A stretch of DNA of 46,042 bases from Holosporales bacterium (GCA_031267725.1 JAIRYO010000039.1:1-46042), one strand, 5' to 3'. Counted from the first letter of the stretch, positions 191 to 38,951 are shown. Program-made: numbers and translations. The notes: a model not told the origin generated them from the sequence alone.

Positions 191-503
191 ATATATAGCA
201 ATCTCTGAATATTACTTAGAGGGATTGGTAATCTATTATATAAAGGTGAAGAGATTGCTTTATATATCTTGTCTAAAGCATTATAAAAAAAATACAAAAA
301 TCATTTAAGCATGGTTTACGGTCTATTCAGACTGGGCCGCCTGAGTCATGTTAAGTTTGAGGCTGGCCGAGTGGTTCTCAAGGTCTTAAGCATTCGTTGA
401 AGATCTATGTTTGCGGCCGGCCGCTTTGTTCAAGCTTTAATAGGAAAAGGATGAAAAGAAAAAAATACAAAAATCATTGGGGCATGGTTTTATGAACGTA
501 TAC
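191..503. repeat. Half copy of the composite palindromic repeat: central module (191-267) plus one complete arm, ending in the terminal module
   Basis: ATATATAGCAATCTCT...AGAGATTGCTTTATATAT (191-267) is followed by the arm ...AAATACAAAAATCATTTAAGCATGGTTTACGGTCTATTCAGACTGGGCCGCC...TTGTTCAAGCTTTAATAGG...CATTGGGGCATGGTTTTATGAACGTATAC. It matches the arms at 23774-24370 and 35632-36333. Confidence 0.9.
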
Positions 504-579
504 CATAGATTTGACAACTAATTTAGTTGCCAATTCCCATAGATACACACCTGGACAAATCCATCCCCCTTAATGTAGA

Positions 580-2928
580 ATGAAGCTGTTATGCTGTATA
601 GAGTTGATCGCGTTACAAATGGCTAAAGAGATGAAAAGGCAATTGCCGCTGGTTGCATTGAGGGATACAGTTGTTTTTCCTGAGTTTGTTATTCCGCTTT
701 TCATAGGTCGTCCGAAATCAATAAAAGCTGTAGAAAATGCCCTTAACGGTGATAAGCAAGTTGTTTTTGTGACGCAAAAAGATTCAACTCTCGATGTTGT
801 TGTACCTGAAGATCTTTACAAATTTGGAACAGTTTGTCATATAAGTCAAATGATAAGGTTAACAGATGGTACGGTGAAAATATTAGCTGAAGGATTGTAT
901 AGAGCCTCGATTGAGGAAATAGTCGACGACGAATCAATGATGTTGGGAGTAGCAATCGAAGCGAAAATCAGTAAAGTGGATACGAAAAAGCTTGATGCTT
1001 TAAGACTCGCCATTCTTTCAAATTTTGAATCGTTCTTCAAACAAAATAGAAAAATTCCAGCGGATGTTTTCTCTTCTATTTCATCTATTGAAGCTCCTTC
1101 GAAACTATGCGACACAGTAGCATCTTACCTTCCTCTTAAAATAAGTGAACGACAAAACGTACTAGAAATACTCTCAGTCAGAGAAAGGCTAGAAAAATTG
1201 ATATACCTGATGGAAGAGAGATCTGAGCTTGTTTTAGTCGAGAAAAAGATTAAGAACCGGGTAAAGAAGCAAGTGGAAAAAAATCAAAAGGAGTATTACC
1301 TAAATGAGCAATTAAAAGCCATATATAGAGAGCTTGGAGATGCTGAAGATGTAAATCAAGAAGCTAGAGCACTTGGACAAAAGATAAAAAAATCTAATAT
1401 GTCAGTTGAAGCGAAAGAAAAGGCTCTTACCGAACTTAAAAGGTTAAGGAGCATGCCTCCTCTTTCGCAAGAGGGAGGCATAGTGAGGACTTATTTGGAT
1501 TGGTTGTTTAATATACCATGGAGTCGTTCAACAAACGATTCTTCCCTAAAAGAATCTCAAGAGATCTTGGATAAGAGTCATTACGGATTAGAAAAGGTCA
1601 AAGAGCGCATAATGGAATATTTGGCAGTTCAAAAAAGGGTTTCTGAAATGAAAGCTCAGATAATGTGTTTTGTTGGGCCGCCCGGTGTAGGAAAAACGTC
1701 ATTAGGAAAAGCCATAGCAGATGCAACTAAAAGATCTTTCGTTAGGGTTGCGCTCGGAGGAATTAACGATGAAGCTGAAATAAGAGGGCATAGAAAGGCA
1801 TACATTGGAGCAATGCCAGGAAAAATAATGCAGGCCATGAAAAAAGCAAAGACGATTAACCCTGTAATAATGCTGGATGAAATAGACAAATTGGATTCAG
1901 ATTGGAGGGGGGATCCTGCGGCTGCTCTTCTGGAAGTACTGGATCCAGAGCAGAACCGGTCTTTCGTTGACCATTATATAGAGGTTCCATACGATTTGTC
2001 TGAAGTCATGTTTATAACGACGGCGAATAGTCTGAACATTCCTCCTGCCCTTCTTGATCGTATGGAAGTTATAGCTCTTTCAGGATACACAGAAGAAGAA
2101 AAAGTTAGTATTGCTAAGATTCATATAATTCCGAAACAGTTGAAATCTAACGGGCTAAAGGATGGAGAAATCGAATTTTTGGATTCTGCAGTAATAAAAA
2201 TCATTTCGAGTTACACTATGGAATCCGGAGTTAGGAGTCTCGAGAGAGAAATTTCTAAAATCTGTAGAAAGATAGTAAAGAAAATAGTTTCTGAAGAGTG
2301 TAGTGGGTTAACAATAATCGAAGATGCAAATTTAGCTGATTATCTCGGCGCGGAAAAACATTCCATGCTTAAATCTGATAAAAACCCTAAAGTTGGAGTA
2401 GTAATGGGGCTTGCCTGGACGGAAGCTGGGGGAGACGTTCTTGAGGTAGAGTCCCTTCTTCTCTCTGGAAGCGGAAATATAATATCAACCGGAAAGCTTG
2501 GGGAGGTTATGCAAGAATCCATAAAGGCTGCATATAGTTATGTTAAGTCTCAATCAAAGAGGTTTGGGCTGGATCCTAAAAATTTTAATAAAACAGACAT
2601 TCATATTCACGTTCCAGAAGGGGCCGTTCCGAAGGATGGGCCTTCCGCTGGTATTACTGTATGCACTGCTATAGTTTCGGCATTAACCAATAAGAAGGTA
2701 AAGTCAGATATAGCAATGACCGGAGAAATAACTTTGGTGGGAAAAGTCCTAGGTATCGGCGGTCTCAAGGAAAAATTACTGGCTGCGAGAAGGAGCGGAA
2801 TCAGAAAGGTTTTCATTCCACAGGAAAACGAAAAGGATATTTCGGAATTGCCAAGAATTTTAAAGGACGAGATAAAGATAGAATGCGTCAGGCACGTTGA
2901 CGAAGTTTTAAGTAAGGTGTTTGCATGA
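580..2928 (+). CDS. lon: ATP-dependent Lon protease
   Basis: 782-aa ORF with an N-terminal Lon substrate-binding domain, Walker A GPPGVGKTS, Walker B IMLDEIDK, and protease Ser/Lys context PKDGPSAGIT...KEKLLAARR. The ATG at 619 or 631 (MAKEMKRQLPLVALRD...) aligns better with other Lon N-termini than 580. Confidence 0.97.
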   Translation: MKLLCCIELIALQMAKEMKRQLPLVALRDTVVFPEFVIPLFIGRPKSIKAVENALNGDKQVVFVTQKDSTLDVVVPEDLYKFGTVCHISQMIRLTDGTVKILAEGLYRASIEEIVDDESMMLGVAIEAKISKVDTKKLDALRLAILSNFESFFKQNRKIPADVFSSISSIEAPSKLCDTVASYLPLKISERQNVLEILSVRERLEKLIYLMEERSELVLVEKKIKNRVKKQVEKNQKEYYLNEQLKAIYRELGDAEDVNQEARALGQKIKKSNMSVEAKEKALTELKRLRSMPPLSQEGGIVRTYLDWLFNIPWSRSTNDSSLKESQEILDKSHYGLEKVKERIMEYLAVQKRVSEMKAQIMCFVGPPGVGKTSLGKAIADATKRSFVRVALGGINDEAEIRGHRKAYIGAMPGKIMQAMKKAKTINPVIMLDEIDKLDSDWRGDPAAALLEVLDPEQNRSFVDHYIEVPYDLSEVMFITTANSLNIPPALLDRMEVIALSGYTEEEKVSIAKIHIIPKQLKSNGLKDGEIEFLDSAVIKIISSYTMESGVRSLEREISKICRKIVKKIVSEECSGLTIIEDANLADYLGAEKHSMLKSDKNPKVGVVMGLAWTEAGGDVLEVESLLLSGSGNIISTGKLGEVMQESIKAAYSYVKSQSKRFGLDPKNFNKTDIHIHVPEGAVPKDGPSAGITVCTAIVSALTNKKVKSDIAMTGEITLVGKVLGIGGLKEKLLAARRSGIRKVFIPQENEKDISELPRILKDEIKIECVRHVDEVLSKVFA

Positions 2929-2976
2929 AAAGTTCTTTTATCCACACGCAGCTACATCAAAGGGAACAGGAAGGTA

Positions 2977-3753
2977 ATGATAGATTCACACGCACATCTC
3001 TATTTTGAGGAGATTTATCAGGATCTAGCAGAAAAGTTGAGACTGATGAAATTGGTTGGGGTTGATTATGTATTAACCGTCTGTACCGATTCAAAAACAA
3101 TGCCAACGAATATATCAATCGCAGAGAGTTACGACAATGTATTTTGCTCAGTTGGAATCCACCCTCATCATTTTAAGGAAGGTTATGATTTGGATGAAAT
3201 ACTTTTTCTCTCGAAGAGAAAGAAAGTCGTCGCTATTGGAGAAGTTGGTTTGGATTATCATTACGCAGATGAAACACCAAAAAGTGATCAGATAAAGTTA
3301 TTTAGAGATATGTTGTCGATATCTGAAAAGACAGACCTGCCATATATCTTCCACGCTAGAGAATGCTTTAAAGACATCTTGAACATTCTATCCGAATATA
3401 ATATAGGTTCTGCGGTATTTCACTGTTATACTGACTCGCTAGAAAACGTAAAAAGGGTTCTTGATCTAGGATATTATATTTCATTTTCCGGAGTTGTTAC
3501 TTTCAAGAACTCAGTAGATCTTCGCGAAATCGTGAAATACGTTCCTGAAAATAGGTTTTTGATTGAAACTGATTGTCCGTATTTAGCTCCAATCCCATAT
3601 CGCGGCCACACAAATGAACCGGCATTTGTTAGTCTTGTCGCTGAATGCATTGCGAATCTTAGAGGTATTTCGGTTGATGCTGTTTCAGATTTGACAACTA
3701 AGAATTTCTTTGAACTGTTTAAGAAAGCAAAACTTTTTATTGAGGAAAATTGA
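2977..3753 (+). CDS. tatD: TatD/YcfH-family metal-dependent hydrolase (DNase)
   Basis: 258 aa with motifs DSHAHL, GEVGLDYHY, FHCY and ETDCPYLAP. A purine-rich AGGAAGG sits just upstream of the ATG. Confidence 0.9.
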   Translation: MIDSHAHLYFEEIYQDLAEKLRLMKLVGVDYVLTVCTDSKTMPTNISIAESYDNVFCSVGIHPHHFKEGYDLDEILFLSKRKKVVAIGEVGLDYHYADETPKSDQIKLFRDMLSISEKTDLPYIFHARECFKDILNILSEYNIGSAVFHCYTDSLENVKRVLDLGYYISFSGVVTFKNSVDLREIVKYVPENRFLIETDCPYLAPIPYRGHTNEPAFVSLVAECIANLRGISVDAVSDLTTKNFFELFKKAKLFIEEN

Positions 3754-3836
3754 TGAAAAAAGTAGAAAAGTTATTTTTGAATTCAAGGAGGTTTAGAGAA
3801 TTGGCAAGAGAATCGTTAAGGAAAAAGGATTAATTT

Positions 3837-5156: not shown

Positions 5157-5159
5157 CCT

Positions 5160-6395: not shown

Positions 6396-6400
6396 TCAAC

Positions 6401-7141: not shown

Positions 7142-7161
7142 AATTGAAAACGAGACCTCGT

Positions 7162-7237
7162 TGGTGGGCGCCGTAGGATTCGAACCTACGACCCACTGAT
7201 TAAGAGTCAGTTGCTCTACCAACTGAGCTAGGCGCCC
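7162..7237 (-). tRNA. tRNA-Lys (anticodon CUU), CCA encoded
   Basis: The reverse complement folds as GGGCGCC-TA-GCTC-AGTTGGTA-GAGC-A-ACTGA-CTCTTAA-TCAGT-GGGTC-GTAGG-TTCGAAT-CCTAC-GGCGCCC-A-CCA. Confidence 0.92.
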
Positions 7238-7243
7238 AAAAAC

Positions 7244-7320
7244 TGGCGTCTCCTACGGGATTTGAACCCGTGTTGCCGCCGTGAGAGGGCGGTGTCCTAG
7301 ACCCCTAGACGAAGGAGACC
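7244..7320 (-). tRNA. tRNA-Glu (anticodon CUC), CCA encoded
   Basis: The reverse complement is GGTCTCC-TT-CGTC-TAGGGGTCTA-GGAC-A-CCGCC-CTCTCAC-GGCGG-CAAC-ACGGG-TTCAAAT-CCCGT-AGGAGAC-G-CCA. It closely resembles the E. coli tRNA-Glu scaffold. Confidence 0.9.
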
Positions 7321-7391
7321 CATCCTCTGGATTGTGCCAAAAATATTCGCGATTTGCAAGTTAAAATGGAGTTTTTAAAATGGAATTTCAT

Positions 7392-7616
7392 GTATACGTT
7401 CATATAGCTGGGGACAAAAGAGAGGTATCTTGAACTCTCGTTACTCTGTAAGCAATCTCTTCACCCTTTATATACATACCCCCCTCTAAGTAATATTCAG
7501 AGATTGCTATATATCTTGTTTGAAGTATTGTAAAGAAATACAAAAATCATTGGGGCATGGTTTACTGCCTATTCAGGCTGGGCCATGCCGAATTTAGGGT
7601 TGTTACAGAATTCATA
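7392..7616. repeat. Composite repeat copy: terminal module + central module (7449-7514, inverted relative to 191-267) + partial arm
   Basis: GTATACGTTCATATAGCTGGGGACAAAAGAGAGG...AAGCAATCTCTTCACCC...CTCTAAGTAATATTCAGAGATTGCTATATAT CTTGTTTGAAG...AAATACAAAAATCATTGGGGCATGGTTTACTGCCTATTCAGGCTGGGCC. Confidence 0.85.
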
Positions 7617-7645
7617 ACTTTTCTACATACTTAGTTTTCAAGTGA

Positions 7646-8245
7646 GTGTGGATGTTTTTTGGACATGAGCGTATATTAGGAGCAAAGTTGAAAGATGTTT
7701 TTGAGAGAATTGTTACCGTTGTGATACTTAAGATATTTAAAGTGATTTTCCTTTTTCTTGCAATATGCATAATCGGTTACTGTATATCGAGAAGTGAAAA
7801 GCCGGATAAACTCACTGAAGTTTCACCTTTAGTTATAAAAAAGAATTCAGGAGAGGTTATAAGGTATAGTAAACGATTCAAAAATGGAACACTACTTCTT
7901 TCGGCAAAAATGGCAAATTTAAAAACTAATGATTGTGTATTCATGGAGGATATGGAAGCAACTTTCAAAAAGGGGAATAGAATAATCATTGTCAAGGCTA
8001 AAGCATGCGAATTAAACACCAAAGAGAAAAAGGTATATCTTAAAAAAAATGTTCAGATAAATTCAGAAGACATGATCTGTAATACAGAATCTGCTATAAT
8101 TGATCTCGAATCAAATTTAATAACGGGGAATTCAAAAGTAAGCGGTAGCTCTCATAAAACAAAGTTTACATCAGATGGTTTTTCGATACATGATAATGGA
8201 CAGATTAAGTTAAAACGAGCAGTGATAACAAAGGTAACTAAATGA
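7646..8245 (+). CDS. lptC: LptC-like LPS export protein (membrane-anchored OstA-fold)
   Basis: 199 aa with a single N-terminal TM (IFKVIFLFLAICIIGYCI) followed by a beta-rich domain. It lies immediately upstream of lptA-lptB with an ATGA stop/start overlap. The start is GTG 7646 or ATG 7652. The call rests mainly on context. Confidence 0.55.
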   Translation: MWMFFGHERILGAKLKDVFERIVTVVILKIFKVIFLFLAICIIGYCISRSEKPDKLTEVSPLVIKKNSGEVIRYSKRFKNGTLLLSAKMANLKTNDCVFMEDMEATFKKGNRIIIVKAKACELNTKEKKVYLKKNVQINSEDMICNTESAIIDLESNLITGNSKVSGSSHKTKFTSDGFSIHDNGQIKLKRAVITKVTK

Positions 8246-17822: not shown

Positions 17823-17829
17823 GTTTTAG

Positions 17830-18975: not shown

Positions 18976-19101
18976 TTATCCTTGTCTTGCTTTAAACTTT
19001 GGAACCTGCTTGTTTATAACGTACAATCTTCCCTTCCGGCGAACGAGTTTGCAAGCTCTGTGGCGATTTCGCAATGTTTTAAGCGAATTAACTATTTTCA
19101 T
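18976..19101 (-). CDS. rpmJ: 50S ribosomal protein L36
   Basis: The last 41 codons of the 96-aa ORF read [41 protein letters not shown], the alphaproteobacterial L36 pattern. The upstream 55 codons are read-through into a repeat element (MVYGLF...). Confidence 0.9.
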
Positions 19102-19224
19102 ACTAGCCAAGAATTCAAGTGCGACTCTGAGCATTATATCACTTTTCTTAATTATAGAAAGAGCAATTAAAATAATGTCTGCGTTCACATACCCCAAGGT
19201 AAAAGAAGTGGAATTATTTTTTCC

Positions 19225-19471
19225 CATGACTCCAGCATGCCCCCTCCTGAATAGACCGTAAACCATGCTTAAATGATTTTTGTATTTTTTTTATAATGCT
19301 TTAGACCGGATATATAGCAATCTCTGAATATTACTTAGAGGAGTTGGTTATATATGTAAGGGGGGAAGGAGATGGGTTTACTCCCTATTCAGGTTGGGCC
19401 GCCGAAGTTATGGTTATTCATAGAAGAAAACTAACTTTGAATCTTTTGTCTCAAACTATATGAACGTATAC
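19225..19471. repeat. Composite repeat copy (arm + central module 19310-19370 + short arm + terminal module)
   Basis: ...CTGAATAGACCGTAAACCATGCTTAAATGATTTTTGTATTTTTTTTATAATGCTTTAGACCGGATATATAGCAATCTCTGAATATTACTTAGAGG...GGTTTACTCCCTATTCAGGTTGGGCCGCC...CTTTTGTCTCAAACTATATGAACGTATAC. Confidence 0.9.
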
Positions 19472-19573
19472 AAGTGTGAAAATTTTTATTGTTTTTACAG
19501 AGAGGGCATGTTAATGTTAATTGTAATATGGGGTGGTTTTTCGTAACTGATTTCTTCTGGGGAGGGGATAGTC

Positions 19574-21868: not shown

Positions 21869-23729
21869 AAATAGAAGCCGCCATTCTCTCGCTAATTCCT
21901 TTTACCATTTTTATATCTTCCATAGAAGCACTTTTTATAATTTCCGCTGCGCCGAAATGTTCAAGCAATAGTTTTTTTCGAATCGTGCCAATGTTAGGTA
22001 TATCATCTAACACCGATTTTGTTATTCCTCCTTGCCTCTTTTTTCTATGAAAAGTTATTGCAGCTCTATGAGCTTCATTTCTTAACGTTATCAAAAATGA
22101 GAGTAACTCACTGTTGTTTCCTAAAACCATTTCTTCACCGCTTTCAAAGACTATTTTCTCGTCTCCCATCCTTCTATCGTTCTGTTTAGCTATCCCTATT
22201 ATTTTAACATTATCCAGAAATTTAAATTGATTTTTAACTTTAAGGGCAATAGAAAGCTGTGTTTTACCTCCATCTATTATTAGAAGATTCGGAATTTCGG
22301 GAATTCTCGATGATTTGAAGCGTTTTTCAAGAGAAAAGCGCATCATCTCAATATCGTCTCCCCCATTTGCAGTTTTTTCAGAAATAGTAAACTTTCTTGT
22401 TTTGCTTTTCTGTATTTTTCCATATTCAAAAACGACCATTGCTCCGCACGCATTTGTTCCATGAATATGGCTATTATCATAAATTTCTATTCTATCTATG
22501 GTTTTAAGACCAATCAATCGACATAATTCTGCAATTTGCTTTTCGTAGTGGTTAGCATTCTCCTTCTCCAATTTCATCTTAGCATTAAACCTACAAGAAT
22601 CAATTATCCTTCTATATACTTCTCGTTTCGCCACCTCTATCTTTACATTTACTCCGTATGATAATTGCATAAATTCAGAAACCGGCTTCGCGTTCTTAAG
22701 TTCAAATTCAATGATAATTGTAGTTGGAGGAGTAACGCTTTTATAAAATTGAAGAATAAAAGATTCGACCACTTCTGAATCTTCAAATCCTATAGTATTT
22801 TCTAAAAGTAACGATTCACTTCCAACATTCTTTCCCGTTCTGAAAAATGTTATTGAAATGGCGGTATTTTCAAAATTTCGAACAATAGCTATAAAATCTA
22901 TGGAGAATAGATCTTCAATTTGTATATATTGTTTTGATTGAATTTCCGTAATTGCCTTTATTCTGTCTCTAATTACAGCAGCTTGCTCAAAATTCATATC
23001 TTTTGCAGCGCTTCGCATCTTGTCGGTCAACATTTTCCTGACTATCTTATCTTTCCCAGTTAAAAGCTCTTTGGCAAGATTAACATTTTGCGTATATGTA
23101 TCTTTAGATATTTTGTTAACACAGGGGGCTGAACACCTTTTTATAAAATACTGCAAACATGGTCTTGTTCTGTGCACGAATTGGTTATCCGTACAATTTC
23201 TCAGAAGAAATGCTTTTTGTATAACCTTTACGGTTTCGTTGAGAGCGGATATCGCAGGATATGGCCCAAAGAAGTTTTTGTTTTTTGGTTTTAAAGTCCT
23301 ATATTTAAAGATTCTAGGAAATTCATGAACGTCATCAATAACTAGGTATGGGAAAGTTTTATCATCCTTTAAAAGAATGTTATAAAATGGTTTAAGTTCT
23401 TTTATCAAATTACTTTCAAGAAGGAATGATTCAATTTCGGAATTAACGACCGTAACCTCTACATCCTCAATATTAGATATCATCATTTTGGTCCTATTCG
23501 CCAATTGATTAAAGTTAGTATACGAAAGCAGCCTGTTTTTAAGATGTTTGGCTTTTCCAACGTATATAACCTTTTCTTCTGCATTAATCATTTTATAAAT
23601 TCCAGGACGCGAACCTGCTCGTCTCGCAGCCGTTTTTATCGTTTCGATAATCCCTTTTAGCTTTTTCAATCTAGACGCCTCAGTGCCTCGACAAATAAGT
23701 ATGCTAACAAAAAAAATAGGGAAACGCAA
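21837..23729 (-). CDS. uvrC: Excinuclease ABC subunit C
   Basis: GIY-YIG (PGIYKMINAEEKVIYVGKAKHLKNRLLSY), a Cys-rich region (CLQYFIKRCSAPC), a UVR domain (FEQAAVIRDRI), an RNaseH-like endonuclease domain and a C-terminal HhH. The N-terminal 20 codons look spurious; a possible TTG start lies at 23669. Confidence 0.95.
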   Translation of the reverse strand: MRFPIFFVSILICRGTEASRLKKLKGIIETIKTAARRAGSRPGIYKMINAEEKVIYVGKAKHLKNRLLSYTNFNQLANRTKMMISNIEDVEVTVVNSEIESFLLESNLIKELKPFYNILLKDDKTFPYLVIDDVHEFPRIFKYRTLKPKNKNFFGPYPAISALNETVKVIQKAFLLRNCTDNQFVHRTRPCLQYFIKRCSAPCVNKISKDTYTQNVNLAKELLTGKDKIVRKMLTDKMRSAAKDMNFEQAAVIRDRIKAITEIQSKQYIQIEDLFSIDFIAIVRNFENTAISITFFRTGKNVGSESLLLENTIGFEDSEVVESFILQFYKSVTPPTTIIIEFELKNAKPVSEFMQLSYGVNVKIEVAKREVYRRIIDSCRFNAKMKLEKENANHYEKQIAELCRLIGLKTIDRIEIYDNSHIHGTNACGAMVVFEYGKIQKSKTRKFTISEKTANGGDDIEMMRFSLEKRFKSSRIPEIPNLLIIDGGKTQLSIALKVKNQFKFLDNVKIIGIAKQNDRRMGDEKIVFESGEEMVLGNNSELLSFLITLRNEAHRAAITFHRKKRQGGITKSVLDDIPNIGTIRKKLLLEHFGAAEIIKSASMEDIKMVKGISERMAASIFEFFIERKDE

Positions 23730-23773
23730 ATTTGTCCATTTCTAATTCTGTATTGAATTTGAAAGTTAGTTTT

Positions 23774-24370
23774 CGTCTATTAATAACTCTGAATCCTGAA
23801 TAGGCAGTAAAACCATGCTTCAATGATTCGTGTATTTCTTTCTCTTCATCCTTTCCTTTTAAAGCTTGAACAAGGCGATCGAACTCAAACATAAAATGTT
23901 CCACGTGGAACAATTGATTTAAAAGCTTGAGAACCACTCGGCCAGCCTCAACCTTAACATGACTCAGGCGGCCCAGTCTGAATAGACCGTAAACCATGCT
24001 TAAATGATTTTTGTATTTTTTTTATAATGCTTTAGACAGGATATATATAAGCACTCTCTTCACCGTTTTATATATGATTACCAATCCCTCTAAGTAATAT
24101 TCAGAGATTGCTATATATCATGCTTAAAGCATTATAAAAAGAAATACAAAAATCATTGGGGCATGGTTTACGGTCTATTCAGACTGGGCCGCCTGAGTCA
24201 TGTTATGTTTGAGGCTGGCCGAGAGGTTCTCAAGCTTTAACAGGAAAGGATGAAGAGAAAGAAATACTCAAATCATTGAGATATGGTTTAGGGTCTATTC
24301 AGGCTGGGGCAGGCAGGATTCATGGCGAAAAGTAATTCCACATCTTTTGTCTCACATCTGTTTGAACTTA
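23774..24370. repeat. ~600-bp nested palindrome of the composite repeat family (centre module 24041-24118)
   Basis: The left arm (23790-24040) and right arm (24119-24330) are reverse complements. The exception is a 61-bp segment carrying GTTCCACGTGGAAC (23898-23911), present only on the left arm. The right end carries the terminal-module variant AAGTAATTCCACATCTTTTGTCTCACATCTGTTTGAACTT. Confidence 0.92.
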
Positions 24371-24393
24371 CACACATATTGTAAATATCTTGG

Positions 24394-25659
24394 ATGCGGT
24401 ATAAAATAGGGTTTTATAGATTGGTCGAAAAAATGTCTAAAAGTTTAGGCTTCTTTTCTTTCCTAAAGCACTCCATACCTGCCTCGATTTGGGCTATCGG
24501 TCTTTCGTCTCTTTTGATCAATTTGGCAACTTCTGCCATTTTTTCAGGATCTGCATTATATCTAAAAGTTGTTTTGGGGGCGACGGTATCTGCCATTGGT
24601 TTTATAGAAGCGATTGTTGAAGCTATGTCCTATGGAGTAAGGATATTTTCTGGGGTAGTAAGCGACTATTTCAAAAAAAGAAAACTCTTTATGGTTATAG
24701 GATTCGTAATGCTGACAATTTCGAAACCAATGTTTGCGTTTTCTAAATCTATTGCCGAAATTTTCGTCGCGAAGACGATAGACAGAATTGGTAATGGCCT
24801 TCAAGCAACTCCGAGGGATGCGTTAATTACGGATTCTTCCCCAAAGGAAATAAGAGGCTCCTGTTTTGGGTTAAGACAAAGTCTAGCTGTTATAGGTTCA
24901 ACTTTGGGAGGGTTATTCGGTATTGCGGTTATGGCCGTTTCAAATAATGATTTCAAACTACTTTTTATATTAGCTGCCGTTCCTGCCGCAATTGCTTCCA
25001 TTATATTGTGTTTATTTGCGAAAGAGAAAAAGTCCGCAGAGCACGCTAATCCTCAACGTAGAAAAATAAGAATGCGTGACTTAAAGCTACTAGGAAAGAA
25101 GTTTTGGGTTTTAACAATCGTTGTCGTTGTTTTCAGTTTAGGACGGTTTAGCGGAATTTTTATTACACTTCACGCTTGTGAAAATTTTGGATTAGACCTT
25201 TTATACGGGACTGCGATAACCACAACATACAATCTTTTCTCAACTTTAGTTTCGTATCCAATTGGAAAGTTGTCCGATAGGATGGATAGAGTAACGCTGT
25301 TGCTGATAGGTTTTGGATTTTTAATTTTATCTCATTTATCTATCGGTCTTGCAAACGGCCTATTTTGGGTATTTTTTGGAACTGCATTTTGGGGGATACA
25401 ACGTGGAATAACAGATGGCCTGCTATCAACGCTTGTTTCAGATTATGTTCCAAAAGAACTAAGAGGAACTGGATTTGGCATCTACTATCTCGTAGTTTCG
25501 GCTTCAACCGCGGTCGCGAACGCATTTGCTGGAATTGTTTCTCAACAAAGCGGAAAAGGGGCAGAATTCATTGCCGGAGCAATTTTTTGCATATTCGCAA
25601 CATTCCTATTGTTAATCGTAAAAAAAAATCTCTCACCAAAAGCGAGTGTTTTAAAGTAA
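24394..25659 (+). CDS. MFS transporter
   Basis: 421 aa and about 12 TM segments, with the MFS loop motif DRIGNGLQATPRDAL and GKLSDRMDR in the second half. The start is possibly at MSKSLGFF (24433). Confidence 0.85.
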   Translation: MRYKIGFYRLVEKMSKSLGFFSFLKHSIPASIWAIGLSSLLINLATSAIFSGSALYLKVVLGATVSAIGFIEAIVEAMSYGVRIFSGVVSDYFKKRKLFMVIGFVMLTISKPMFAFSKSIAEIFVAKTIDRIGNGLQATPRDALITDSSPKEIRGSCFGLRQSLAVIGSTLGGLFGIAVMAVSNNDFKLLFILAAVPAAIASIILCLFAKEKKSAEHANPQRRKIRMRDLKLLGKKFWVLTIVVVVFSLGRFSGIFITLHACENFGLDLLYGTAITTTYNLFSTLVSYPIGKLSDRMDRVTLLLIGFGFLILSHLSIGLANGLFWVFFGTAFWGIQRGITDGLLSTLVSDYVPKELRGTGFGIYYLVVSASTAVANAFAGIVSQQSGKGAEFIAGAIFCIFATFLLLIVKKNLSPKASVLK

Positions 25660-25703
25660 CAGAGAGGAGAAAGCCTTTACTCAGATACGACAAAAATCTG
25701 CTC

Positions 25704-26738
25704 CTCTATGAATAACCATGACTCCCGCATGGCCCAGCCTGAATAGAGAGGCTGTATTGTAATCTTCCGATGAGGATATATAAGCAATCTATGAATATTG
25801 CTTAGAGGGGTTGGTAATATATGTAAGAAGTGAAGAGATTGCTTATATACATCTTATCTAAAGCATCGTAAAAAAATACAAAAATAATTGGGGCATGGTT
25901 TACTGCCTATTCAGGTTAGGTCATGCGGGAGTCATGTTGTGTTTGAGGCCAGCCGGATGGTTCAAGCTTTTAAGCGATTGTTCCATAACCATGAATCCGG
26001 CAGCTCAGCCTGAATAGGTAGTAACCCTTGCCCCCCCCTATAGCAACAAAACTCTTCTGATGATTCTCATTCTTTGTTTGTACTTAAGTCTAGCAAGGTA
26101 GTGTTTTCCTGTCCTAAACAGGCTGAAACAAGTCCCCAATGATTTTTGTATTTTTTTACAATGCTTTAAACGGGACATATAGCACTCTCTTCACCCTTTC
26201 CTATTAAAACCTTGAACCACTCGGCCGGCATCAAACATAACCTGAATTCGGCGGCCCAGTCTGGATAGACCGTAAACTATGCTTAAATGATTTTTGTATT
26301 TTTTTTATAATGCTTTAGACAGGATATATAAAGCAATCTTTTCACCTTTATATAATAGATTACCAACCCCTCTAAGTAATATTCAGAGATTGCTATATAT
26401 CATGCTTAAAGCATTATAAAAAGAAATACAAAAATCATTGGGGCATGGTTTACGATCTATTCAGACTGGGCCATGCAGGGTTCAGGTTATGTTTGAGTCC
26501 GGCTGAGTGGTTCTAAAGTTTTTAGGCATTCGTTGAACATTTATGCTTTAGGCCAGCCGGATGGTTCAAGCTTTTAAGCGATTGTTCCAGATGAGACATC
26601 TACGTTTGATGCTATCAGTGGCTCAATCTTAAATTGCTATGTATACCCCACCATTTAAGTATGGTTTACTCCCTGTTCAGGCTGGGCCATGCAGGAGTCA
26701 GAGTTATTGGATGAAAAGTAACTTCACACCTTTTGTTA
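25704..26738. repeat. ~1-kb repeat-only region: several juxtaposed or nested copies of the composite repeat (central modules at 25775-25850 and 26324-26400)
   Basis: Multiple CTGAATAG..GTAAACCATGC / GCATGGTTTAC..CTATTCAG units, half GTTCCA modules (GATTGTTCCATAACC, GATTGTTCCAGATGAG) and AAGCTTTTAAGCGATTG duplicated at ~25966 and ~26568. No ORF of convincing length. Confidence 0.9.
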
Positions 26739-26930
26739 TAGCTAAGTAATGAGGGAACTGAGGAAACAATAATGGAAGCTATTGTCTTTTAGACTATTTG
26801 TAAAAACCAGCCATTGTTCTTTTCTCAGCCGGTCATTGAATTAAATCTATAACAAAAAAATTTTAACAAGAATAAGTTTTACTTTTTTGTGTACAATACT
26901 ATTTCAGTGTAACTCAGGTCTATTTTAATC

Positions 26931-27806: not shown

Positions 27807-27904
27807 ATATCTCTTGAGTATAGATGGCAGTGGTCTTTAATTCTCCCATATTATCTGATGCTTTGTTTACGAAAGGGGGAGGCCAAACTCTCCCGCTAAG
27901 TAGC

Positions 27905-28020
27905 TAAAGCTTTTAAGCGATTGTTTCACGTGGAACATTTTATGTTGGAGGCTGGCTTACTCAACTATAACAACAAACATAGCCATGAATCCTGCATATC
28001 CAGGTCTGAATTGGGGCAGC
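27905..28020. repeat. Fragment of the composite repeat with a degenerate palindrome core (GTTTCACGTGGAAC, 27923-27936)
   Basis: AAAGCTTTTAAGCGATTGTTTCACGTGGAACATTTTATGTTGGAGGCTGG...CATGAATCCTGCATATCCAGGTCTGAATTGGGGCAGC. Confidence 0.75.
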
Positions 28021-28170
28021 TTCAAAGAACTCCTTTTATAGTAGGATTGCTAATTGGAAATCCCTTATATCATATGTTTAAGTAATTGCGGAAATCCCAA
28101 ATAGCATATTCGATAAAATCATTTAATTGCTTTCAATCTCGCGTTAAACTTAATTATCAGATTTTTAAAA

Positions 28171-31526: not shown

Positions 31527-32103
31527 AATTTATAAAATTATCCAAACCTGGTAGGATTGTAGCATATGAAATTTAAATAGATCAACTTAGATTTAGAATA
31601 TCTTTAAATCCCGCAAGGGCTTTTAATTCTCCAATATTATTTTAATAGCTTGTTTATGAAAGCGTGAGTACCAAGCTCTCATTTCAGTGATAGATTATCC
31701 ATTTGGATACAAGGAGCACGGCTAGACTCTCATTAGAGAAACCATTATTTTAGTTTAAGGACTAATTGACGCTTACTCAGTTACGGCAAAAGGTATAACT
31801 AGGAATCCTAGATGGCTATTAATAATTGTTCCACGTGGAACAATTGTTACCGGAATGCTTTAATGCTTTATCTTATCTATGATGTGGGAAAGAAGATGAA
31901 AGAACAACGCACACATTATAACGAGCAGTGAGGCTAATATTGTACTATAACAGAATCATAAGCTGCAAGAATTAAATCGGGTTTAAAAAAAATTGTTCGA
32001 GATTAGATATGAAATCTGCATTTTTGACCAATTTGTATCATCTATTTGCTTTCCATTTTGTACACTAAATTTGTGACCTTTTAGTTCGATTTCAATACGT
32101 AGT

Positions 32104-33573: not shown

Positions 33574-33628
33574 AAACGATAGAGGATGACAGGAACATAC
33601 ATAATAAGGCTTATGTCTATTTGTCCTT

Positions 33629-35611
33629 TTACATTCCCAATAAAGCCCCTAACCCCGGTTTTTTGGATGCGATACCCGTATCTACCTCTTTTAAAAAAGT
33701 CTTTTCAGCTACACTTTCGTCATTAGACAAAAGCTTTAAAAAAAACATCTTGGCAATCCTAGCAGGTATTCTGCCTCCAGTTGATGTTTCAATCATTTTT
33801 TGCCTATTTATGTCGTTTCCGATCCATACCCCCATCGAAAATCCACTATTTTTGTCATCTGGCGGATCGTAAAACCCGACAAACCAAGCATCCGTATTTC
33901 CATTTGTTCCGGTCTTTCCGTATATATGGGCATTAACATTAACCGCTCTACCTGTCCCATTTTTTACGACGTTTCTTAATAAGGCTTTACACGAAATTAG
34001 CGCTTCTTCATCTATGATAGGCAGAATTTTTTCTTTATTTTTCTGAAACAAAATATCTCCAGACTTCGTTTGAATTTCAGTAATGCAATACGGCCAAATT
34101 GGAATTCCATCCATAAACGATGTGTATGCAGAGGTGATATCTTTCAGAGTTACCGGAGTAGTTCCTATTGCGACGCTCATGTCATGGATTGATACATCAA
34201 ATATTCCGAGTTTTTTTGCGAATTTAGAAACTCTTTCTAGTCCTATAAATTGAGCCAATCTGATACTAACCGTATTAACTGAATGAGTAAAACCATCAAG
34301 GAGTGAAATTTCGCCACGACTTTTCCATTTATAGTTTTTAGGTCTCCAATTAGATATGGATATCGGCTCATCCGATATTTTATCTTCTAGTTGAAAACCA
34401 TATTCTATTGCTGCTCCATAAACAAAAATTTTAAATGCTGATCCAGGTAACCTATTTGCCTGAACAGCCCTATTAAATTGGGTTGCAGAGTATTTTGTCC
34501 CTCCAACCATTGCTAAGATTGCCCCATCTCTATTTAAGCAAATAAATGAAGCTTCGGAAAATTTATAATTATCTCCTTCAGTTTTTACGTAAAAATCAAC
34601 AGATGCTTCTGCAGCCGTCTGTTTTTTATCATCCAAAGTGGTGATAATCACTATATCGTCTTCAATTTCTCCGAGAATTTTCTTTGCTTGTTCATACGCG
34701 TAATCGCAAAAATACATGCAGTTCTGATCTTGTTGAGGGCTGTTAGCAAAAGCACTTTTTGCCTGTTTTTTCTCTATCTCTTTAGCATCTTTTATATATC
34801 CCTGTTCTTCCATCATTTTTAGTACAACAAGAGCGCGTTCATAAGCGTAATTGGGATGATTTCCTGGGTTATACTTAGTCGGAGCTTTTAGCAATCCAGC
34901 CAATATCGCGGCTTCAAAGATAGATAATTTAGTTGAGGATTTGTTGAAATATTTGCGAGAGGCAGCATCTATCCCATACGTACCAGCTCCGAAGTAGACT
35001 CTATTTATGTATAACATCATTATATCTGCTTTACTAAATCTATATTCAAGCCAAAAGGCGAGTAAAAGTTCCTTTATCTTTCTTTTAATTGTTTTATCGT
35101 AATGTGTGATGATTCCCTCAGCAATCAATATATTTTTTGCGAGTTGTTGAGTTATTGTTGACCCCCCCTGAATAACCTTGCGGGCAATATAGTTTTGGTA
35201 AATTGCTCTACAAAATCCTATAAAATCTATGCCAAAGTGATGGAAGAACCTTTTGTCCTCAATGGCTATAAACGCTTCTGGCACATATTTAGGCAGGTCT
35301 TCAAGCTTCACGAGCTCTTCATATAAATCTCCATAGGTGCCTAAAATTTTTCCATCATAAGTTTGTATAGTAACTCCAGGGAACCTGATTTCTGTTTTTA
35401 AGTTTTTAAGATCCGGAAGCCCATTTGCAAAGTATAACAAAACGACGCTGAACGAGACTAAGCCGCAAACGAAGAGACATAAACAATGCCTGAAAAATAT
35501 TCTTAAAAATGATTTTTTCTTTTTTTTTATAGGACGAGTCTTAGCTCTCATTAATGTTTGGAATCGACTCGGCCACCAGGGCAGTTTAGCAGCATACAGT
35601 CTTAAAAACAA
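33629..35611 (-). CDS. mrcA: Class A penicillin-binding protein (PBP1A-type transglycosylase/transpeptidase)
   Basis: GT51 motifs EDKRFFHHFGIDF and GGSTITQQLAKN. Transpeptidase motifs SAFK (GSAFKIFVYG), SVN (HSVNTV) and KTGT. It has an N-terminal TM anchor. The start is possibly at MRAKTRPIKKKK (35551). Confidence 0.93.
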   Translation of the reverse strand: MFLRLYAAKLPWWPSRFQTLMRAKTRPIKKKKKSFLRIFFRHCLCLFVCGLVSFSVVLLYFANGLPDLKNLKTEIRFPGVTIQTYDGKILGTYGDLYEELVKLEDLPKYVPEAFIAIEDKRFFHHFGIDFIGFCRAIYQNYIARKVIQGGSTITQQLAKNILIAEGIITHYDKTIKRKIKELLLAFWLEYRFSKADIMMLYINRVYFGAGTYGIDAASRKYFNKSSTKLSIFEAAILAGLLKAPTKYNPGNHPNYAYERALVVLKMMEEQGYIKDAKEIEKKQAKSAFANSPQQDQNCMYFCDYAYEQAKKILGEIEDDIVIITTLDDKKQTAAEASVDFYVKTEGDNYKFSEASFICLNRDGAILAMVGGTKYSATQFNRAVQANRLPGSAFKIFVYGAAIEYGFQLEDKISDEPISISNWRPKNYKWKSRGEISLLDGFTHSVNTVSIRLAQFIGLERVSKFAKKLGIFDVSIHDMSVAIGTTPVTLKDITSAYTSFMDGIPIWPYCITEIQTKSGDILFQKNKEKILPIIDEEALISCKALLRNVVKNGTGRAVNVNAHIYGKTGTNGNTDAWFVGFYDPPDDKNSGFSMGVWIGNDINRQKMIETSTGGRIPARIAKMFFLKLLSNDESVAEKTFLKEVDTGIASKKPGLGALLGM

Positions 35612-35631
35612 CTCTTTTTCCGATTATGTCT

Positions 35632-36333
35632 GCGTTCATATGATTTTGGACAAAAGGGGCGAGATTACTTTTGTCTAACAACCCCGAATCCTGCCTGCCC
35701 CAGCCTGAATAGGCAGTAAACCATGCTTAAATGATTTGTGTATTTCTTTCTCTTCATCCTTTTCTATTAAAGCTTGAACAAGGCGGCCAGCCTCAAACAT
35801 AAAATGTTCCACGTGGAACAATTGTTTAAAACCTTAGGCCCCTCGGCCAGCCTCAAACATAACATGACTCAGGCGGCCCAGTCTAAATAGACCGTAAACC
35901 ATGCTTAAATGATTTTTGTATTTTTTTTATAATGCTTTAGACAGGATATATAAAGCAATCTCTTCACCTTATATATAATAGATTACCACCCCCTCTAAAC
36001 CATATTCAGAGATTGCTATATATCATGCTTAAAGCATTATAAAAAGAAATACAAAAATCATTGGGGCATGGTTTACGGTCTATTTAGACTGGGCCGCCTG
36101 AGTCATGTTATGTTTGAGGCTGGCCGAGGGGCCTAAGGTTTTAAACAATTGTTCCACGTGGAACATTTATGTTTGAGTTCGGCCGCCTTGTTCAAGCTTT
36201 AATAGAAAAGGATGAAGAGAAAGAAATACACGAATCATTGAAGTATGGTTTAGGGTCTATTCAGGCTTGACCAGGCAGGAGTCAGGAAAAGCAACTCCCC
36301 CTCTCTTTTCCCTCAGGCTATGTGAACATATAC
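35632..36333. repeat. ~700-bp near-perfect nested palindrome of the composite repeat family (centre module ~35946-36023)
   Basis: Terminal modules lie at both ends (GCGTTCATATGATTTTGGACAAAAGG / ...CAGGCTATGTGAACATATAC). 35806-35880 is the exact reverse complement of 36090-36164 (75 nt, checked base by base). Each arm carries two CTGAATAG..GTAAACCATGC units and one GTTCCACGTGGAAC (35806-35819, 36151-36164). Confidence 0.95.
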
Positions 36334-36488
36334 ACTAAAAAGAAAGATAAAAATTATTTTTAATGATATGATGAAGGTGAAGTTTATAACTCTAACTCGT
36401 ATTCATAAAGTAAAATTTTTACTGCAAAATGAATGTGTATTTAAATGTACTTACGAAACGACGTTTTTTATGAGGTGATAATAAATCG

Positions 36489-37970
36489 ATGAAAGAATAT
36501 TTAACTATATCAGCTGTAAGAAATGGGTTGAAAAGCGGAGAGTTTACCTCTGTTGAATTGACCGAGTATTATCTCAAAAAAATGGATGCAATGGCGGATC
36601 TTAACGCATTTATAACTATCGATTCGGAAAAATCAATTGATTGCGCTAAAGCGGCAGATAAAAAAATTTCAAAAGGAGAAAATAAGCCGCTTCTTGGGGT
36701 TCCACTTGCAATTAAAGATTTGTTTTGCACTAAAGGAACGAGAACTACAGCTGGATCTAAAATGCTTTCGAATTTCATTCCAGAATATGAGTCAACAGTA
36801 ACTCAGAACCTGATTGATGATGGGGCGATTTTTATTGGGAAAACCAATATGGACGAATTTGCAATGGGCTCCGCCAATATAACGAGCTATTTTGGTCCAT
36901 GTTTTTTGCCATACAGAAAGAAAACATCTCCAGAGATGAAATTAGTTCCCGGAGGATCCTCTGGTGGATCTGCAACATCCGTCGCATCTGATTTGTGCGT
37001 TGCCGCAACCGGATCTGATACTGGCGGGTCAATAAGACAACCTGCTGCCTTTTCCGGTATTGTGGGTATAAAGCCAACTTATGGCCTCTGTTCAAGATGG
37101 GGAATGGTGGCTTTTGCTTCCTCGCTAGATCAAGCTGGACCATTGACTAAAAACATTGAAGATGCAGCTATTATGTTACAGTCAATGGCTGGATATGATG
37201 ATAAAGATTCAACTTCGGAAAACATAAAAATTCCGAATTATCTTGATTTTTTGGGAAAATCTATAAAAGGCATGAGAATCGGAATTGCTAAGGAATATAC
37301 TGATGGAATAAATCAGGAAAATGTGGAATTACTCGAAAATGTTAAGACTTGGCTTGTTGATGCTGGATGTGAAATTATAGACATTTCTCTTAAAACTACC
37401 CCTTATGCTCTTCCTGTTTATTATATAATTGCCCCCGCAGAAGCTTCCTCTAATCTTGCTAGGTATGACGGTGTTAAGTATGGATACCGTTCTAAAAATT
37501 ATAAAAACATTGATGAGTTGTATATTAACTCCAGATCTGAAGGATTCGGAGAAGAAGTCAAGAGAAGAATTTTGACTGGAACATATGTTCTATCTGCGGG
37601 ATACCATGATGCTTATTACACAAAAGCTCTAAAAATCCAACAAATGATAAAAGATGATTTTAAAGATAATGCATTTTCTAAAATTGATTTAATTTTATGT
37701 CCAACTACTCCTAATACAGCTTTTGGCGTTGAGGAATCGAGTAAAATGTCTCCTGTTGAAATGTATTTAAACGACGTATTTACCGTTAATGCGAATATAG
37801 CTGGCCTTCCTGCTATTTCCATACCGACCGGTTTATCAAAAGATGGACTTCCAATGGGAATTCAGGTAATTGGAAACAGGTTTTGTGAAGCGGACATATT
37901 CAAAGTTTCTTACGTGATAGAAAAATCCGCTTGTTTCGAAGAGTTGAGGAAGAAAATCCTCCTGGTGTAG
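36489..37970 (+). CDS. gatA: Glutamyl-tRNA(Gln)/aspartyl-tRNA(Asn) amidotransferase subunit A
   Basis: Amidase signature GGSSGGSATSVASDLCVAATGSDTGGSIRQPAAFSGIVGIKPTYG, at a typical GatA length of 493 aa. No gatC or gatB is adjacent. Confidence 0.96.
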   Translation: MKEYLTISAVRNGLKSGEFTSVELTEYYLKKMDAMADLNAFITIDSEKSIDCAKAADKKISKGENKPLLGVPLAIKDLFCTKGTRTTAGSKMLSNFIPEYESTVTQNLIDDGAIFIGKTNMDEFAMGSANITSYFGPCFLPYRKKTSPEMKLVPGGSSGGSATSVASDLCVAATGSDTGGSIRQPAAFSGIVGIKPTYGLCSRWGMVAFASSLDQAGPLTKNIEDAAIMLQSMAGYDDKDSTSENIKIPNYLDFLGKSIKGMRIGIAKEYTDGINQENVELLENVKTWLVDAGCEIIDISLKTTPYALPVYYIIAPAEASSNLARYDGVKYGYRSKNYKNIDELYINSRSEGFGEEVKRRILTGTYVLSAGYHDAYYTKALKIQQMIKDDFKDNAFSKIDLILCPTTPNTAFGVEESSKMSPVEMYLNDVFTVNANIAGLPAISIPTGLSKDGLPMGIQVIGNRFCEADIFKVSYVIEKSACFEELRKKILLV

Positions 37971-38002
37971 CCCGTATCGGCTTTAACTTCCCTCTTATTT
38001 AA

Positions 38003-38063
38003 CCCCAGTTTCACATAAGAGCCCCATTTTTTGTAAAGTTATTAAACTTTTACGAAACTGGGG
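38003..38063. terminator. Candidate bidirectional terminator / structured element between convergent genes
   Basis: CCCCAGTTTC (38003-38012) pairs with GAAACTGGGG (38054-38063). The ~41-nt interval holds a second small hairpin (GTAAAGTT...AACTTTTAC) and a T-run. It lies between gatA (+) and the 134-aa ORF (-). Confidence 0.3.
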
Positions 38064-38162
38064 GGAATACTCGTTCGTTTCAGCCTCGCCAGCTGCATCC
38101 CCCTCAAATCAAGTGTTGTTTGAAGATATTTTCAAAACCTTGGAATCGTGCCCCTCTCAGAA

Positions 38163-38567
38163 TTACACATTTTGCACTGTTTCACTTACAGCTTCAAGAT
38201 CTTCAGCAATCTGCTCAAGCTGAGCTTTATATCCTAAAAACCCCACCTTCAAGGCGCCAACTTCTTCAGTCTCCCAATCTCTCGTTTCCAGTGTTAGTGT
38301 TAATAATCTTATTTCTTGATTTAGTTTTTCTATCTCCAAATCTCTCGCTTTCAGTGTTGATGTTAATAATCCTATTTCTTGATTTAACGAATTTATCTTT
38401 CGTTGAAATGCTTCTAACTGTCCCTTTATTGATAAAACGTTTCTGTTTATTTGCTCAAATATTTTCTTATCGTTGCCCTTTTCTATTTGGAAATTGCCTG
38501 TGGCATATACATTCATTCCAGTGACTATCATTACAAAAAGCGCCAGTAACGGCCTATTCAATTTCAT
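38163..38567 (-). CDS. Small secreted coiled-coil protein with an internal 21-aa tandem repeat
   Basis: 134 aa. An SD-like AAAAGGGG lies ~8 nt upstream of the ATG. It has a signal peptide (LLALFVMIVTGMNVYA|TG) and heptad-like LNQEI(G/R)LLT(S/L)TL(K/E)(A/T)RD(L/W)E(I/T)E repeats. It is preferred over the mirror ORF 38120-38524 (+), which is low-complexity and has no signal or SD. Confidence 0.55.
   Translation of the reverse strand: MKLNRPLLALFVMIVTGMNVYATGNFQIEKGNDKKIFEQINRNVLSIKGQLEAFQRKINSLNQEIGLLTSTLKARDLEIEKLNQEIRLLTLTLETRDWETEEVGALKVGFLGYKAQLEQIAEDLEAVSETVQNV
38271..38396 (-). repeat. In-frame 63-bp tandem duplication (2 units)
   Basis: Unit 1 (38271-38333) is CTCCCAATCTCTCGTTTCCAGTGTTAGTGTTAATAATCTTATTTCTTGATTTAGTTTTTCTAT. 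Unit 2 (38334-38396) is CTCCAAATCTCTCGCTTTCAGTGTTGATGTTAATAATCCTATTTCTTGATTTAACGAATTTAT. Confidence 0.85.
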
Positions 38568-38709
38568 AACTAAACCCCTTTTCTCAAAAATAAATCTCTA
38601 AGTGATGGGGGAAAGTATATTAAAATTTACATAAAAAGTAAAATATTTATCTCATCTCGTATAAAAATATTAGTTATTTATTACTAAAGGGAATGTTATA
38701 GTCTTCAAA

Positions 38710-38951
38710 CATGACTCTTGCCTGCCTCATCCTGAATAGACAGTAAACCATGCTTCAATGATTCGTGTATTTCTTTCTACAATGCTTTAAGCATGATATA
38801 TAGCAATCTTAGAATATTGTTTAGAGGGTTTGATAATCTGTATACAAAGGGGGGGGGAGTCTATTCAGGGGAAGTCGCCGGAGTAATGTTATGTTTGCGG
38901 CTGGCGGATGGTTCAAGCTTTTAAACAAAATGTTCCACGTGGAACATTTTG
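38710..38951. repeat. Composite repeat copy (arm + central module ~38795-38850 + 26-bp perfect palindrome 38926-38951)
   Basis: ...CTGAATAGACAGTAAACCATGCTTCAATGATTCGTGTATTTCTTT...GATATATAGCAATCTTAGAATATTGTTTAGAGGG...GGTTCAAGCTTTTAAACAAAATGTTCCACGTGGAACATTTTG. Confidence 0.85.

Follow-up and report, generated by a model that had tools for sequence, protein, structure and literature searches.

A dense family of long inverted intergenic repeats in a Holosporales bacterium: a candidate non-autonomous transposon family, MITE-like in kind and foldback-like in architecture

Miniature inverted-repeat transposable elements (MITEs) are usually under ~500 bp in size, and insertion sequences (ISs) of the IS630/Tc1 type are the classical drivers of bacterial MITEs such as RUP. 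RIME of rhizobia is an intergenic mosaic element, and the BOX elements of Streptococcus pneumoniae, ~100-300 bp long, are modular and carry a variable number of an internal unit. Bacterial intergenic repeats, including MITEs (Correia, ERIC, RUP, Nezha and MaeMITE), are tabulated at ~100-440 bp and Rickettsia palindromic elements (RPEs) at ~105-146 bp, and repetitive extragenic palindromes (REPs) are recorded as targets of ISs (PMC3184786). The REP unit is described elsewhere as an imperfect palindrome of 20-40 nt that is rich in G+C and has GTAG or CGTC at its head (PMC3733652). Here we describe a family of palindromic repeats in a 46,042-nt stretch of DNA from a bacterium of the Holosporales, which are intracellular alphaproteobacteria (GCA_031267725.1, contig JAIRYO010000039.1), hereafter the window. 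Given the published sizes, the 700-bp form of this family lies at or beyond the upper end of the range. On balance we regard it as moderately probable that the repeats constitute a lineage-specific, non-coding, non-autonomous transposon family, MITE-like in kind and foldback-like in architecture.

The position of the copies, as proposed in an initial annotation of the same DNA, is reproduced by three approaches. A repeat search of the window returned 37 direct-repeat families along with 184 inverted pairs, and all of these cluster in the intergenic spacers that hold copies; blastn with the copy at 35632-36333 as query found matches in 16 intervals that add up to 4,245 nt; and an nhmmer profile built from 19 oriented repeat arms covered 4,666 nt, or 10.1% of the window, in good agreement with the ~10% (about 4.8 kb) previously mapped by hand. 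The repeats form one family, and a very dense one; the arm profile covers 53% of the 8,803 intergenic nt. There are 13 repeat loci in 46 kb. The impression that nearly every long spacer is occupied also holds, since copies are found in 12 of the 13 spacers of 300 nt or more, the thirteenth (31527-32103) containing a lone 16-bp core only. The copies are indeed all intergenic, the sole overlap with a coding sequence amounting to 5 nt at the xerD stop (11149-11153). Individual modules recur far beyond expectation: the 22-nt core of the U unit occurs 22 times with up to 5 mismatches and never in shuffled sequence, GTAAACCATGCNNNAATGATT occurs 12 times against 0 expected, and TGTTCCACGTGGAACA, with up to 2 mismatches allowed, is found 9 times, again against 0 expected. 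Divergence between copies ranges from 3 to 40%.

The longest and most complete copy, which we term the master, comprises 708 bp at 35627-36334; the ends assigned to it initially (35632 and 36333) are thereby slightly corrected, while the placement stands. It consists of an A-type arm on the left and a B-type arm on the right, with modules in the order T-Uo-X-d-b-c-y-b2-z-Ui-e-C and then the inverse. The terminal module T, ~70 nt, begins 5'-TGTCTGCGTTCATATG and is followed by the outer U unit, Uo (CTGAATAGRCNGTAAACCATGC...AATGATTTTTGTATTTCTTT), by X, and by d, which contains AAGCTT (AAGCTTGAAC). Next come the b unit (GGCCAGCCTCAAACATAA) and c, the 16-bp perfect palindrome TGTTCCACGTGGAACA, then y, a second b unit (b2) and z, and finally the inner U unit, Ui, and e. 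The centre, C, is made of two 16-nt inverted arms (TATATAAGCAATCTCT) separated by an asymmetric loop of ~45 nt. U is present twice per arm, and the b unit, together with a c or c* linker, one to three times, the right arm of the copy at 14666-15188 having three b units; c* (ATTCGTTGAACAT) resembles c minus its central bases.

The palindromic nature of the long form is pronounced. The master is 87.5% identical to its own reverse complement over 604 nt (blastn) and contains inverted pairs of 127 nt at 97% and of 121 nt at 88% identity. The single-stranded fold of 35632-36333 has a free energy of -297 kcal/mol (z = -41.6), so that the element as single-stranded DNA is predicted to form one hairpin of ~600 nt. 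The long concentric palindrome proposed for the family is therefore present in this copy; it is not a property of all copies, the short form at 19177-19471 not being significantly structured (z = -0.5). Since the short form has no significant palindrome, hairpin structure is evidently not kept in all copies. We also considered, and rejected, conserved local hairpins supported by compensatory changes: the AAAAG/CTTTT terminal stem and the GCATG/CATGC pairing around U are short and inconsistently kept.

How such a compound structure came to be dispersed is the central question. The initial annotation envisaged modules occurring in different combinations and nestings, i.e., a self-nesting family. 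Mapping onto the half-master does not support this picture, since nearly all copies turn out to be colinear sub-stretches of a single order followed by its inverse. The arms, moreover, fall into two types with diagnostic differences (e.g., CATGCTTAAATGA vs CATGCCCCAATGA): arms of the same type are 80-90% identical across loci, whereas the two arms within one element are only ~82% identical. The polarity of the centre is fixed in 7 of 10 copies, the loop strand GAATATTACTTAGAGGG having the B-type U upstream and the A-type U downstream. Colinearity, two arm types and centre polarity together argue that a polar master with two diverged arms was copied as a whole, and the conservation of arm types and polarity indicates that the compound architecture was inherited from that master and then eroded, rather than being rebuilt repeatedly by nesting. 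Stretches of 129-187 nt that are 94-97% identical among four loci point to recent copying or conversion.

A narrower variant of nesting was examined as well. The inner part of the element is bounded by two c cores, and an inner element could have been inserted into the 16-bp core of an outer one. This is disfavored because both long copies share their junctions and have the two conserved arm types, and because deletion between two cores explains the single-core copy equally well. That copy (10859-11153), in which the outer arms meet at one c core and the inter-core part is missing, joins the left flank of the left-arm core to the right flank of the right-arm core. Likewise, the copy at 7392-7620 and the short forms have one U per arm. 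The shorter copies in general appear to have arisen by internal deletion between sub-repeats of the element itself.

The individual copies illustrate the range of such forms, from 610-708 bp for the long form to 295-316 bp for the short one. The second long copy (23762-24373; nhmmer E = 1e-100 and 4e-92) has the A arm left and the B arm right, in the order and polarity of the master, to whose A arm it is 90% identical; its left T is truncated, and its right arm, without the c core and the b and d units, is joined at AAGCTT. The long copy at 26109-26739, again A left and B right, has extra sub-repeats of b/c* type in its right arm, and lies in tandem with a partial copy (25695-26033) in which a T/U fragment, a complete centre (both of its 16-nt arms included) and a single arm are present. 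The long copy at 14666-15188 is in the opposite orientation (B left, A right); its left arm is truncated, and the three b units of its right arm are parted by c* and c. A half copy at 191-503 (C, an inverted A-type arm and a terminal stub), cut on its left side by an IS630 end, is 88% identical to master positions 87-379 and 94-97% identical to the inner arms 23919-24047, 26214-26400 and 35839-35970; 26214-26400 is 94% complementary to 191-377.

Among the shorter copies, the one at 19177-19471 (295 bp, T-U-e-C-U'-T') retains both termini. Profile, module map and end alignment further define a short form (16955-17270) whose long right terminal module has the canonical terminus at its end, and a short copy (7392-7620) in which a canonical left terminus is combined with the centre, a B-type U and the terminal module; the single-core copy is supported by module map and profile. 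More reduced are a degenerate fragment that abuts the lpxA stop (12181-12395; a terminal piece and a d-b-c* piece; E = 5e-11), a fragment consisting of AAGCTT, y', a c core with 1 mismatch, and b (27892-28024; E = 6e-11), and a partial copy with U, e, the centre and U'-z'-b2'-c (38707-38956), which ends 8 nt short of the bioB stop. The observation that some copies abut gene ends is thus confirmed at the xerD stop, the right end of 10859-11153 providing the last bases of xerD together with its stop codon, and the copy at 19177-19471 does lie upstream of rpmJ.

The boundaries of the element are sharp. Across six loci, eight ends can be aligned inward from 5'-TGTMTRCGTTCAYATAG.TTGAGACAAAAG, and outside this point their flanks are unrelated; the termini of the master are set by this alignment. 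The terminal inverted repeats are ~30 nt long and start with 5'-TGT..., and the repeat ends are transposon-like, of the TG...CA type.

The arms are partly open in one frame, and because of this gene callers yield peptides from them. The open reading frames (ORFs) beginning MVYGLF..., reported previously, were recovered at 24163-24240 (+) and 23704-23997 (-), and further repeat-derived ORFs lie at 35675-35821 (-) and 36169-36270 (+); the peptides include MVYGLFRLGRLSHV... and MFEAGRLVQAL...EEKEIHESL.... A coding origin of the MVYGLF... frame was rejected, and the frame is treated as spurious, since ORF length (22-97 codons) varies from copy to copy. A search with a repeat-derived peptide returned only small hypothetical proteins of one NCBI Holosporales metagenome-assembled genome (MAG) and of two JGI contigs. 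The MAG proteins (LBI95_01870, 03275, 03485, 03500 and 03570, the last being MDR1391413.1) are encoded on three contigs of 39,387, 34,788 and 24,738 nt, and these deposited peptides are annotation artefacts. With repeat-derived ORFs on at least three other contigs of the MAG and on the two JGI contigs, the family is not a local artefact, and its presence on other contigs of one MAG indicates that it is genome-wide in one lineage, probably that of the window's own genome.

These data also bear on whether the pattern could have arisen in the assembly or binning of this metagenomic contig, through chimeric joining or the collapse of repeats. The window does begin inside a multi-copy IS, which is a typical assembly break. 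However, the copies differ by 3-40%, each is flanked by unique, intact housekeeping genes from a single alphaproteobacterial lineage, and the same repeat peptides appear in independent gene calls on other contigs. We regard the chance of such an artefact as negligible.

Outside this lineage, the searches returned no further members. A scan for the exact U-core pattern gave 3 chance hits in GTDB representative genomes (one of them, L001, inside a signal-peptidase gene), and pattern scans gave 25 single chance-level hits in JGI metagenomes, the best being in a high-GC ribosomal-protein gene region, and 4 single hits, also at chance level, in IMG/VR; plasmids and phages yielded no blastn match. 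In Rfam, only tRNAs reach the gathering score in the window, and no family reaches threshold in the repeats. Matches to MIR7996, MIR5048 and MIR2606 at 35869-36099 and 26236-26491, with E down to 1e-12 but scores far under the gathering threshold, are matches to plant miRNA precursors and represent a class of false positives that any long hairpin causes. The gatA loci of relatives (77-80% GatA identity) contain no family member except a lone 16-mer on one contig (L008), and a 2025 review of the Holosporales is silent on transposases, insertion sequences, and repetitive or palindromic elements. The suggestion that the family may be uncharacterized is consistent with these results; as far as searched, in the collections and literature named here, it is real, lineage-specific and undescribed.

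We propose the following course of events for the non-autonomous transposon family favored above. The master was copied in its entirety to numerous intergenic positions in a single uncultured Holosporales genome, as is evident from the copies themselves; transposition would be the process behind it. The copying enzyme would be supplied in trans and encoded outside the window. After insertion, copies would decay by deletions between direct sub-repeats (U/U, b/b2, the palindromic c/c, and AAGCTT/AAGCTT), a pattern that is visible in the copies and presumably reflects this mechanism, to give the short form of ~300 bp, the form with one core, and various fragments. Copies would survive in spacers only, as insertions into genes are purged, and weak selection in a host-restricted bacterium may have allowed the family to reach about half of the intergenic DNA.

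Several observations weigh against this scenario. The polarity rule is broken in 3 of 10 copies, and the high identity between copies could equally stem from gene conversion. No 2-9-nt direct repeat that would represent a target-site duplication flanks 35627-36334 or 19177-19471, the comparison being confined to these two old copies, which alone have both ends, and the end alignment reveals no conserved target base or sequence before the ends. No cognate transposase with matching terminal repeats is present within the window. For an empty-site comparison, the gatA contigs of relatives (L004-L008) offer no orthologous spacer: they are not syntenic with the window, having just gatA and ispDF in common with it.

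The most obvious candidate for an autonomous partner is an IS630-family element, in which case the repeats would be IS630-type MITEs with TA target duplication. The 3' end of an IS630-family (DDE_3) transposase gene occupies 3-188 (+) (Pfam PF13358, E = 1.6e-12, by translation); it encodes the last 61 residues of the transposase (...LPAYSPDLNPIEQFWSW...), and its stop codon lies inside the right end of the IS. The fragment stands directly against a copy, the repeat starting immediately after it, and the transposase is multi-copy in the lineage. The latter is suggested, along with a location at contig breaks, by the presence of the same transposase on another contig and of fragments in the Holosporales MAG: every one of the closest homologues returned is a short fragment (47-107 aa), and one of them, on a 3,377-nt contig, carries an overlapping upstream part that overlaps the window fragment exactly.

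The junction, however, points the other way. Three independent IS630 remnants, in the window and on two other contigs (L034 and L160), share DNA only up to ...TGAGTRTA, which places the right end of the IS at about position 193. IS630 elements insert at TA, and the sequence past the IS end (TATAGCAATCTCT...) is the (TA)3 tract by which the B arm and the centre are separated in copies without an interruption; IS630 is thus inserted into a repeat copy at TA and is not a module of the family. The IS end (TATACTCAAATTAGTTG...) is unlike the repeat terminus TGTMTRCGTTCAYATAG and unlike the centre arms, no TA duplication flanks the two complete elements (35627-36334 and 19177-19471), and other IS630 loci are without the repeat. 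IS630, which the initial annotation had named as a possible source of a cognate enzyme, is therefore represented in the window, but its end differs from the repeat termini, and on these end sequences it is rejected as the parent element; we consider the IS630 explanation as a whole quite unlikely. One of the two contigs with a remnant, L034 (ENA ERZ16299754, 13,958 nt), is plasmid-like, with ParA, a ParE toxin, resolvases and 32% G+C, and has no repeats.

A second known class to be considered is that of REPs and bacterial interspersed mosaic elements (BIMEs), i.e., short palindromic units in mosaics, spread on single-stranded hairpins by a REP-associated tyrosine transposase (RAYT, Y1); such units would have host roles in gyrase or integration host factor (IHF) binding or in transcript stabilization. 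The present family resembles them in being a mosaic of recurring units found in both orientations and in variable number, in its strictly extragenic location, in the absence of target-site duplications and in the strong hairpin potential of the long form. Nevertheless, the 20-40-nt G+C-rich GTAG/CGTC stem-loops are missing: the 4.7 kb of repeats contain just one weak tagged hairpin, c alone recurs as a short palindrome, and the commonest module, the U unit, is not a hairpin. In addition, 5 of 12 loci sit between divergent gene starts and not at 3' ends, the copies have long defined termini and a fixed overall order in common, which BIMEs do not, and there is no Y1 transposase gene in the window. 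We therefore have strong reservations about a REP/BIME-like origin.

The short palindrome c is of interest in its own right, because it also occurs alone. Of the two isolated cores noted initially, one is a perfect copy of TGTTCCACGTGGAACA (31827-31842), with CAATTG on both sides and no other module nearby; the other, given as 45926-45965, proved in a motif search to be only a degenerate match (TATCCCACGTGGAACA, 45924-45939, 2 mismatches in 16). Both solitary cores lie between divergent genes. A lone 16-mer is also found in the relative mentioned above, whose GatA is 80% identical, at L008:7321-7336, ~25 nt upstream of gatB. The lone core might act as a terminator, an operator or a recombination site. 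As a diagnostic marker the 16-mer was rejected, since it is present in at least 120 unrelated viral contigs of IMG/VR.

The core has the structure AAATGTTC-CACGTG-GAACATTT, a perfect palindrome with an 8-6-8 layout, which is reminiscent of the core site of a tyrosine recombinase or of hairpin resolution. All four flank combinations are present in the window (AAAATG|CATTTT, AAAATG|CAATTG, CAATTG|CATTT and CAATTG|CAATTG), and they might be likened to attB, attL, attR and attP. It is conceivable, then, that no transposase is involved and that the palindromes are built, inverted, excised and spread by site-specific recombination at the core or by fold-back replication. If true, this would make the family a bacterial foldback element of an undescribed kind, but we judge it very improbable.

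The remaining explanation is that the repeats are maintained by the host as cis elements, such as promoter, terminator or small-RNA cassettes or nucleoid-structuring palindromes, and are homogenized by gene conversion. Some features would fit this well. The repeat ends are 15-25 nt from the longest-ORF starts of the MFS gene (24373-24394), PBP1 (35611-35627) and lptC (7620-7646), so that transcription must begin in the element or cross it if the start calls are right; either the true starts of these three genes are further downstream, or there are promoters inside the element. The c core with its T run scores as terminator-like on either strand, and this core makes up most of the terminator-like matches within the repeats; a lone core stands upstream of the relative's gatB; and the centre has an asymmetric, well-conserved loop. 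Yet promoter-like sites show no excess (42, with 43.6 expected), truncations and deletions of every possible kind exist among the copies, palindromy is lost in the short form, the copies have no consistent orientation towards neighboring genes, and relatives with the same genes do without the family. Maintenance by the host is, in our opinion, rather unlikely. A more limited relation to host transcription is a separate matter: judging from the positions of the copies, the element probably carries or transmits transcription signals of several housekeeping genes.

The window itself is a stretch of ~36% G+C with housekeeping genes of alphaproteobacterial type, among them lon, tatD, lolCE, lptCAB, xerD, lpxA, fabZ, secG, infC and greA, further a fused ispDF, pgsA, uvrC, PBP1, gatA and bioBFCDA, a terminase gene of gene-transfer-agent (GTA) type, and three tRNAs. 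The closest GatA proteins are 77-80% identical, and every named match is a 'MAG: Holosporales bacterium', which assigns the window to an uncultured lineage of this order. The rpmJ gene (18979-19101, -; 41 codons), directly upstream of ispDF, falls below the 80-codon ORF cut-off and was hence missed by that gene list; the TTG start listed for ispDF, 18975, is the first start to follow the stop of rpmJ, and the true start probably lies further downstream. The large terminase gene, phage or GTA-type (Terminase_6N/6C; 9477-10745, -), is solitary among the housekeeping genes. A Phage_connect_1 gene adjoins gatB on the contigs of relatives, and together the two may be remnants of a GTA cluster.

The gatA locus deserves a separate remark. 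In the window, gatA is not followed by gatB (36489-38963), nor is there a remnant of gatB anywhere in it; the two genes are adjacent in the contigs of five relatives. The spacer 3' of gatA contains one repeat copy and an unassigned 134-codon ORF (38120-38567) that is open on both strands. A repeat copy in the spacer after gatA, where relatives have gatB, raises the question of a repeat-mediated rearrangement. It is the one hint in favor of the proposal, made in the initial annotation, that the family may be a major driver of genome architecture.

Should the rest of the genome resemble the window, one private family would account for over half of the intergenic DNA of this symbiont and for roughly a tenth of its genome. 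This would rank among the denser small-repeat invasions in a host-restricted bacterium and, as far as searched, would be the first noted for the Holosporales. There are practical consequences as well: false hypothetical proteins (MVYGLFRLGR...) that originate from the repeats are already deposited for a Holosporales MAG, the repeats probably fragment assemblies of this lineage, and they constitute a sensitive strain marker.

Comparison with the systems introduced at the outset defines the position of the family. With MITEs it shares non-coding, dispersed intergenic copies, sharp inverted termini, fold-back potential and the absence of a transposase of its own. It differs from them in a full form of ~700 bp, in an inverted repeat that spans nearly the whole element, and in arms built of sub-repeats; moreover, no target-site duplication or TA flanks were found at its complete copies, and there is no known parent IS with the same ends. 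Like the BIMEs of enterobacteria and the Neisseria intergenic mosaic element (NIME), it uses few motifs in both orientations and in variable number, is extragenic, and has served as an IS landing site, for IS630 in this case. In contrast to BIMEs, it is without the REP hairpin or the GTAG/CGTC tag, obeys one global order, polarity and set of termini, and is often found in divergent promoter regions.

The likeness to RPEs lies in the proliferation of palindromic repeats in an obligately host-associated alphaproteobacterium and in arms that are partly open in one frame. Unlike RPEs, the family has no in-frame copy in the genes of the window (5 nt of overlap in 46 kb), is much larger, and has its host in a different order, the Holosporales. 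The variable internal unit of BOX elements is comparable to the b/c units, although BOX elements are not long palindromes with transposon-like ends. In architecture, the closest parallel is offered by the foldback transposons of eukaryotes (FB of Drosophila, Tetris), with very long inverted arms of tandem sub-repeats in variable number, a short unique centre and many internally deleted copies. We know of no described bacterial counterpart of these, and the analogy is one of architecture only, with no homology or common enzyme implied. No new mechanism is established by these comparisons; what they delineate is a new family within a familiar class of selfish DNA.

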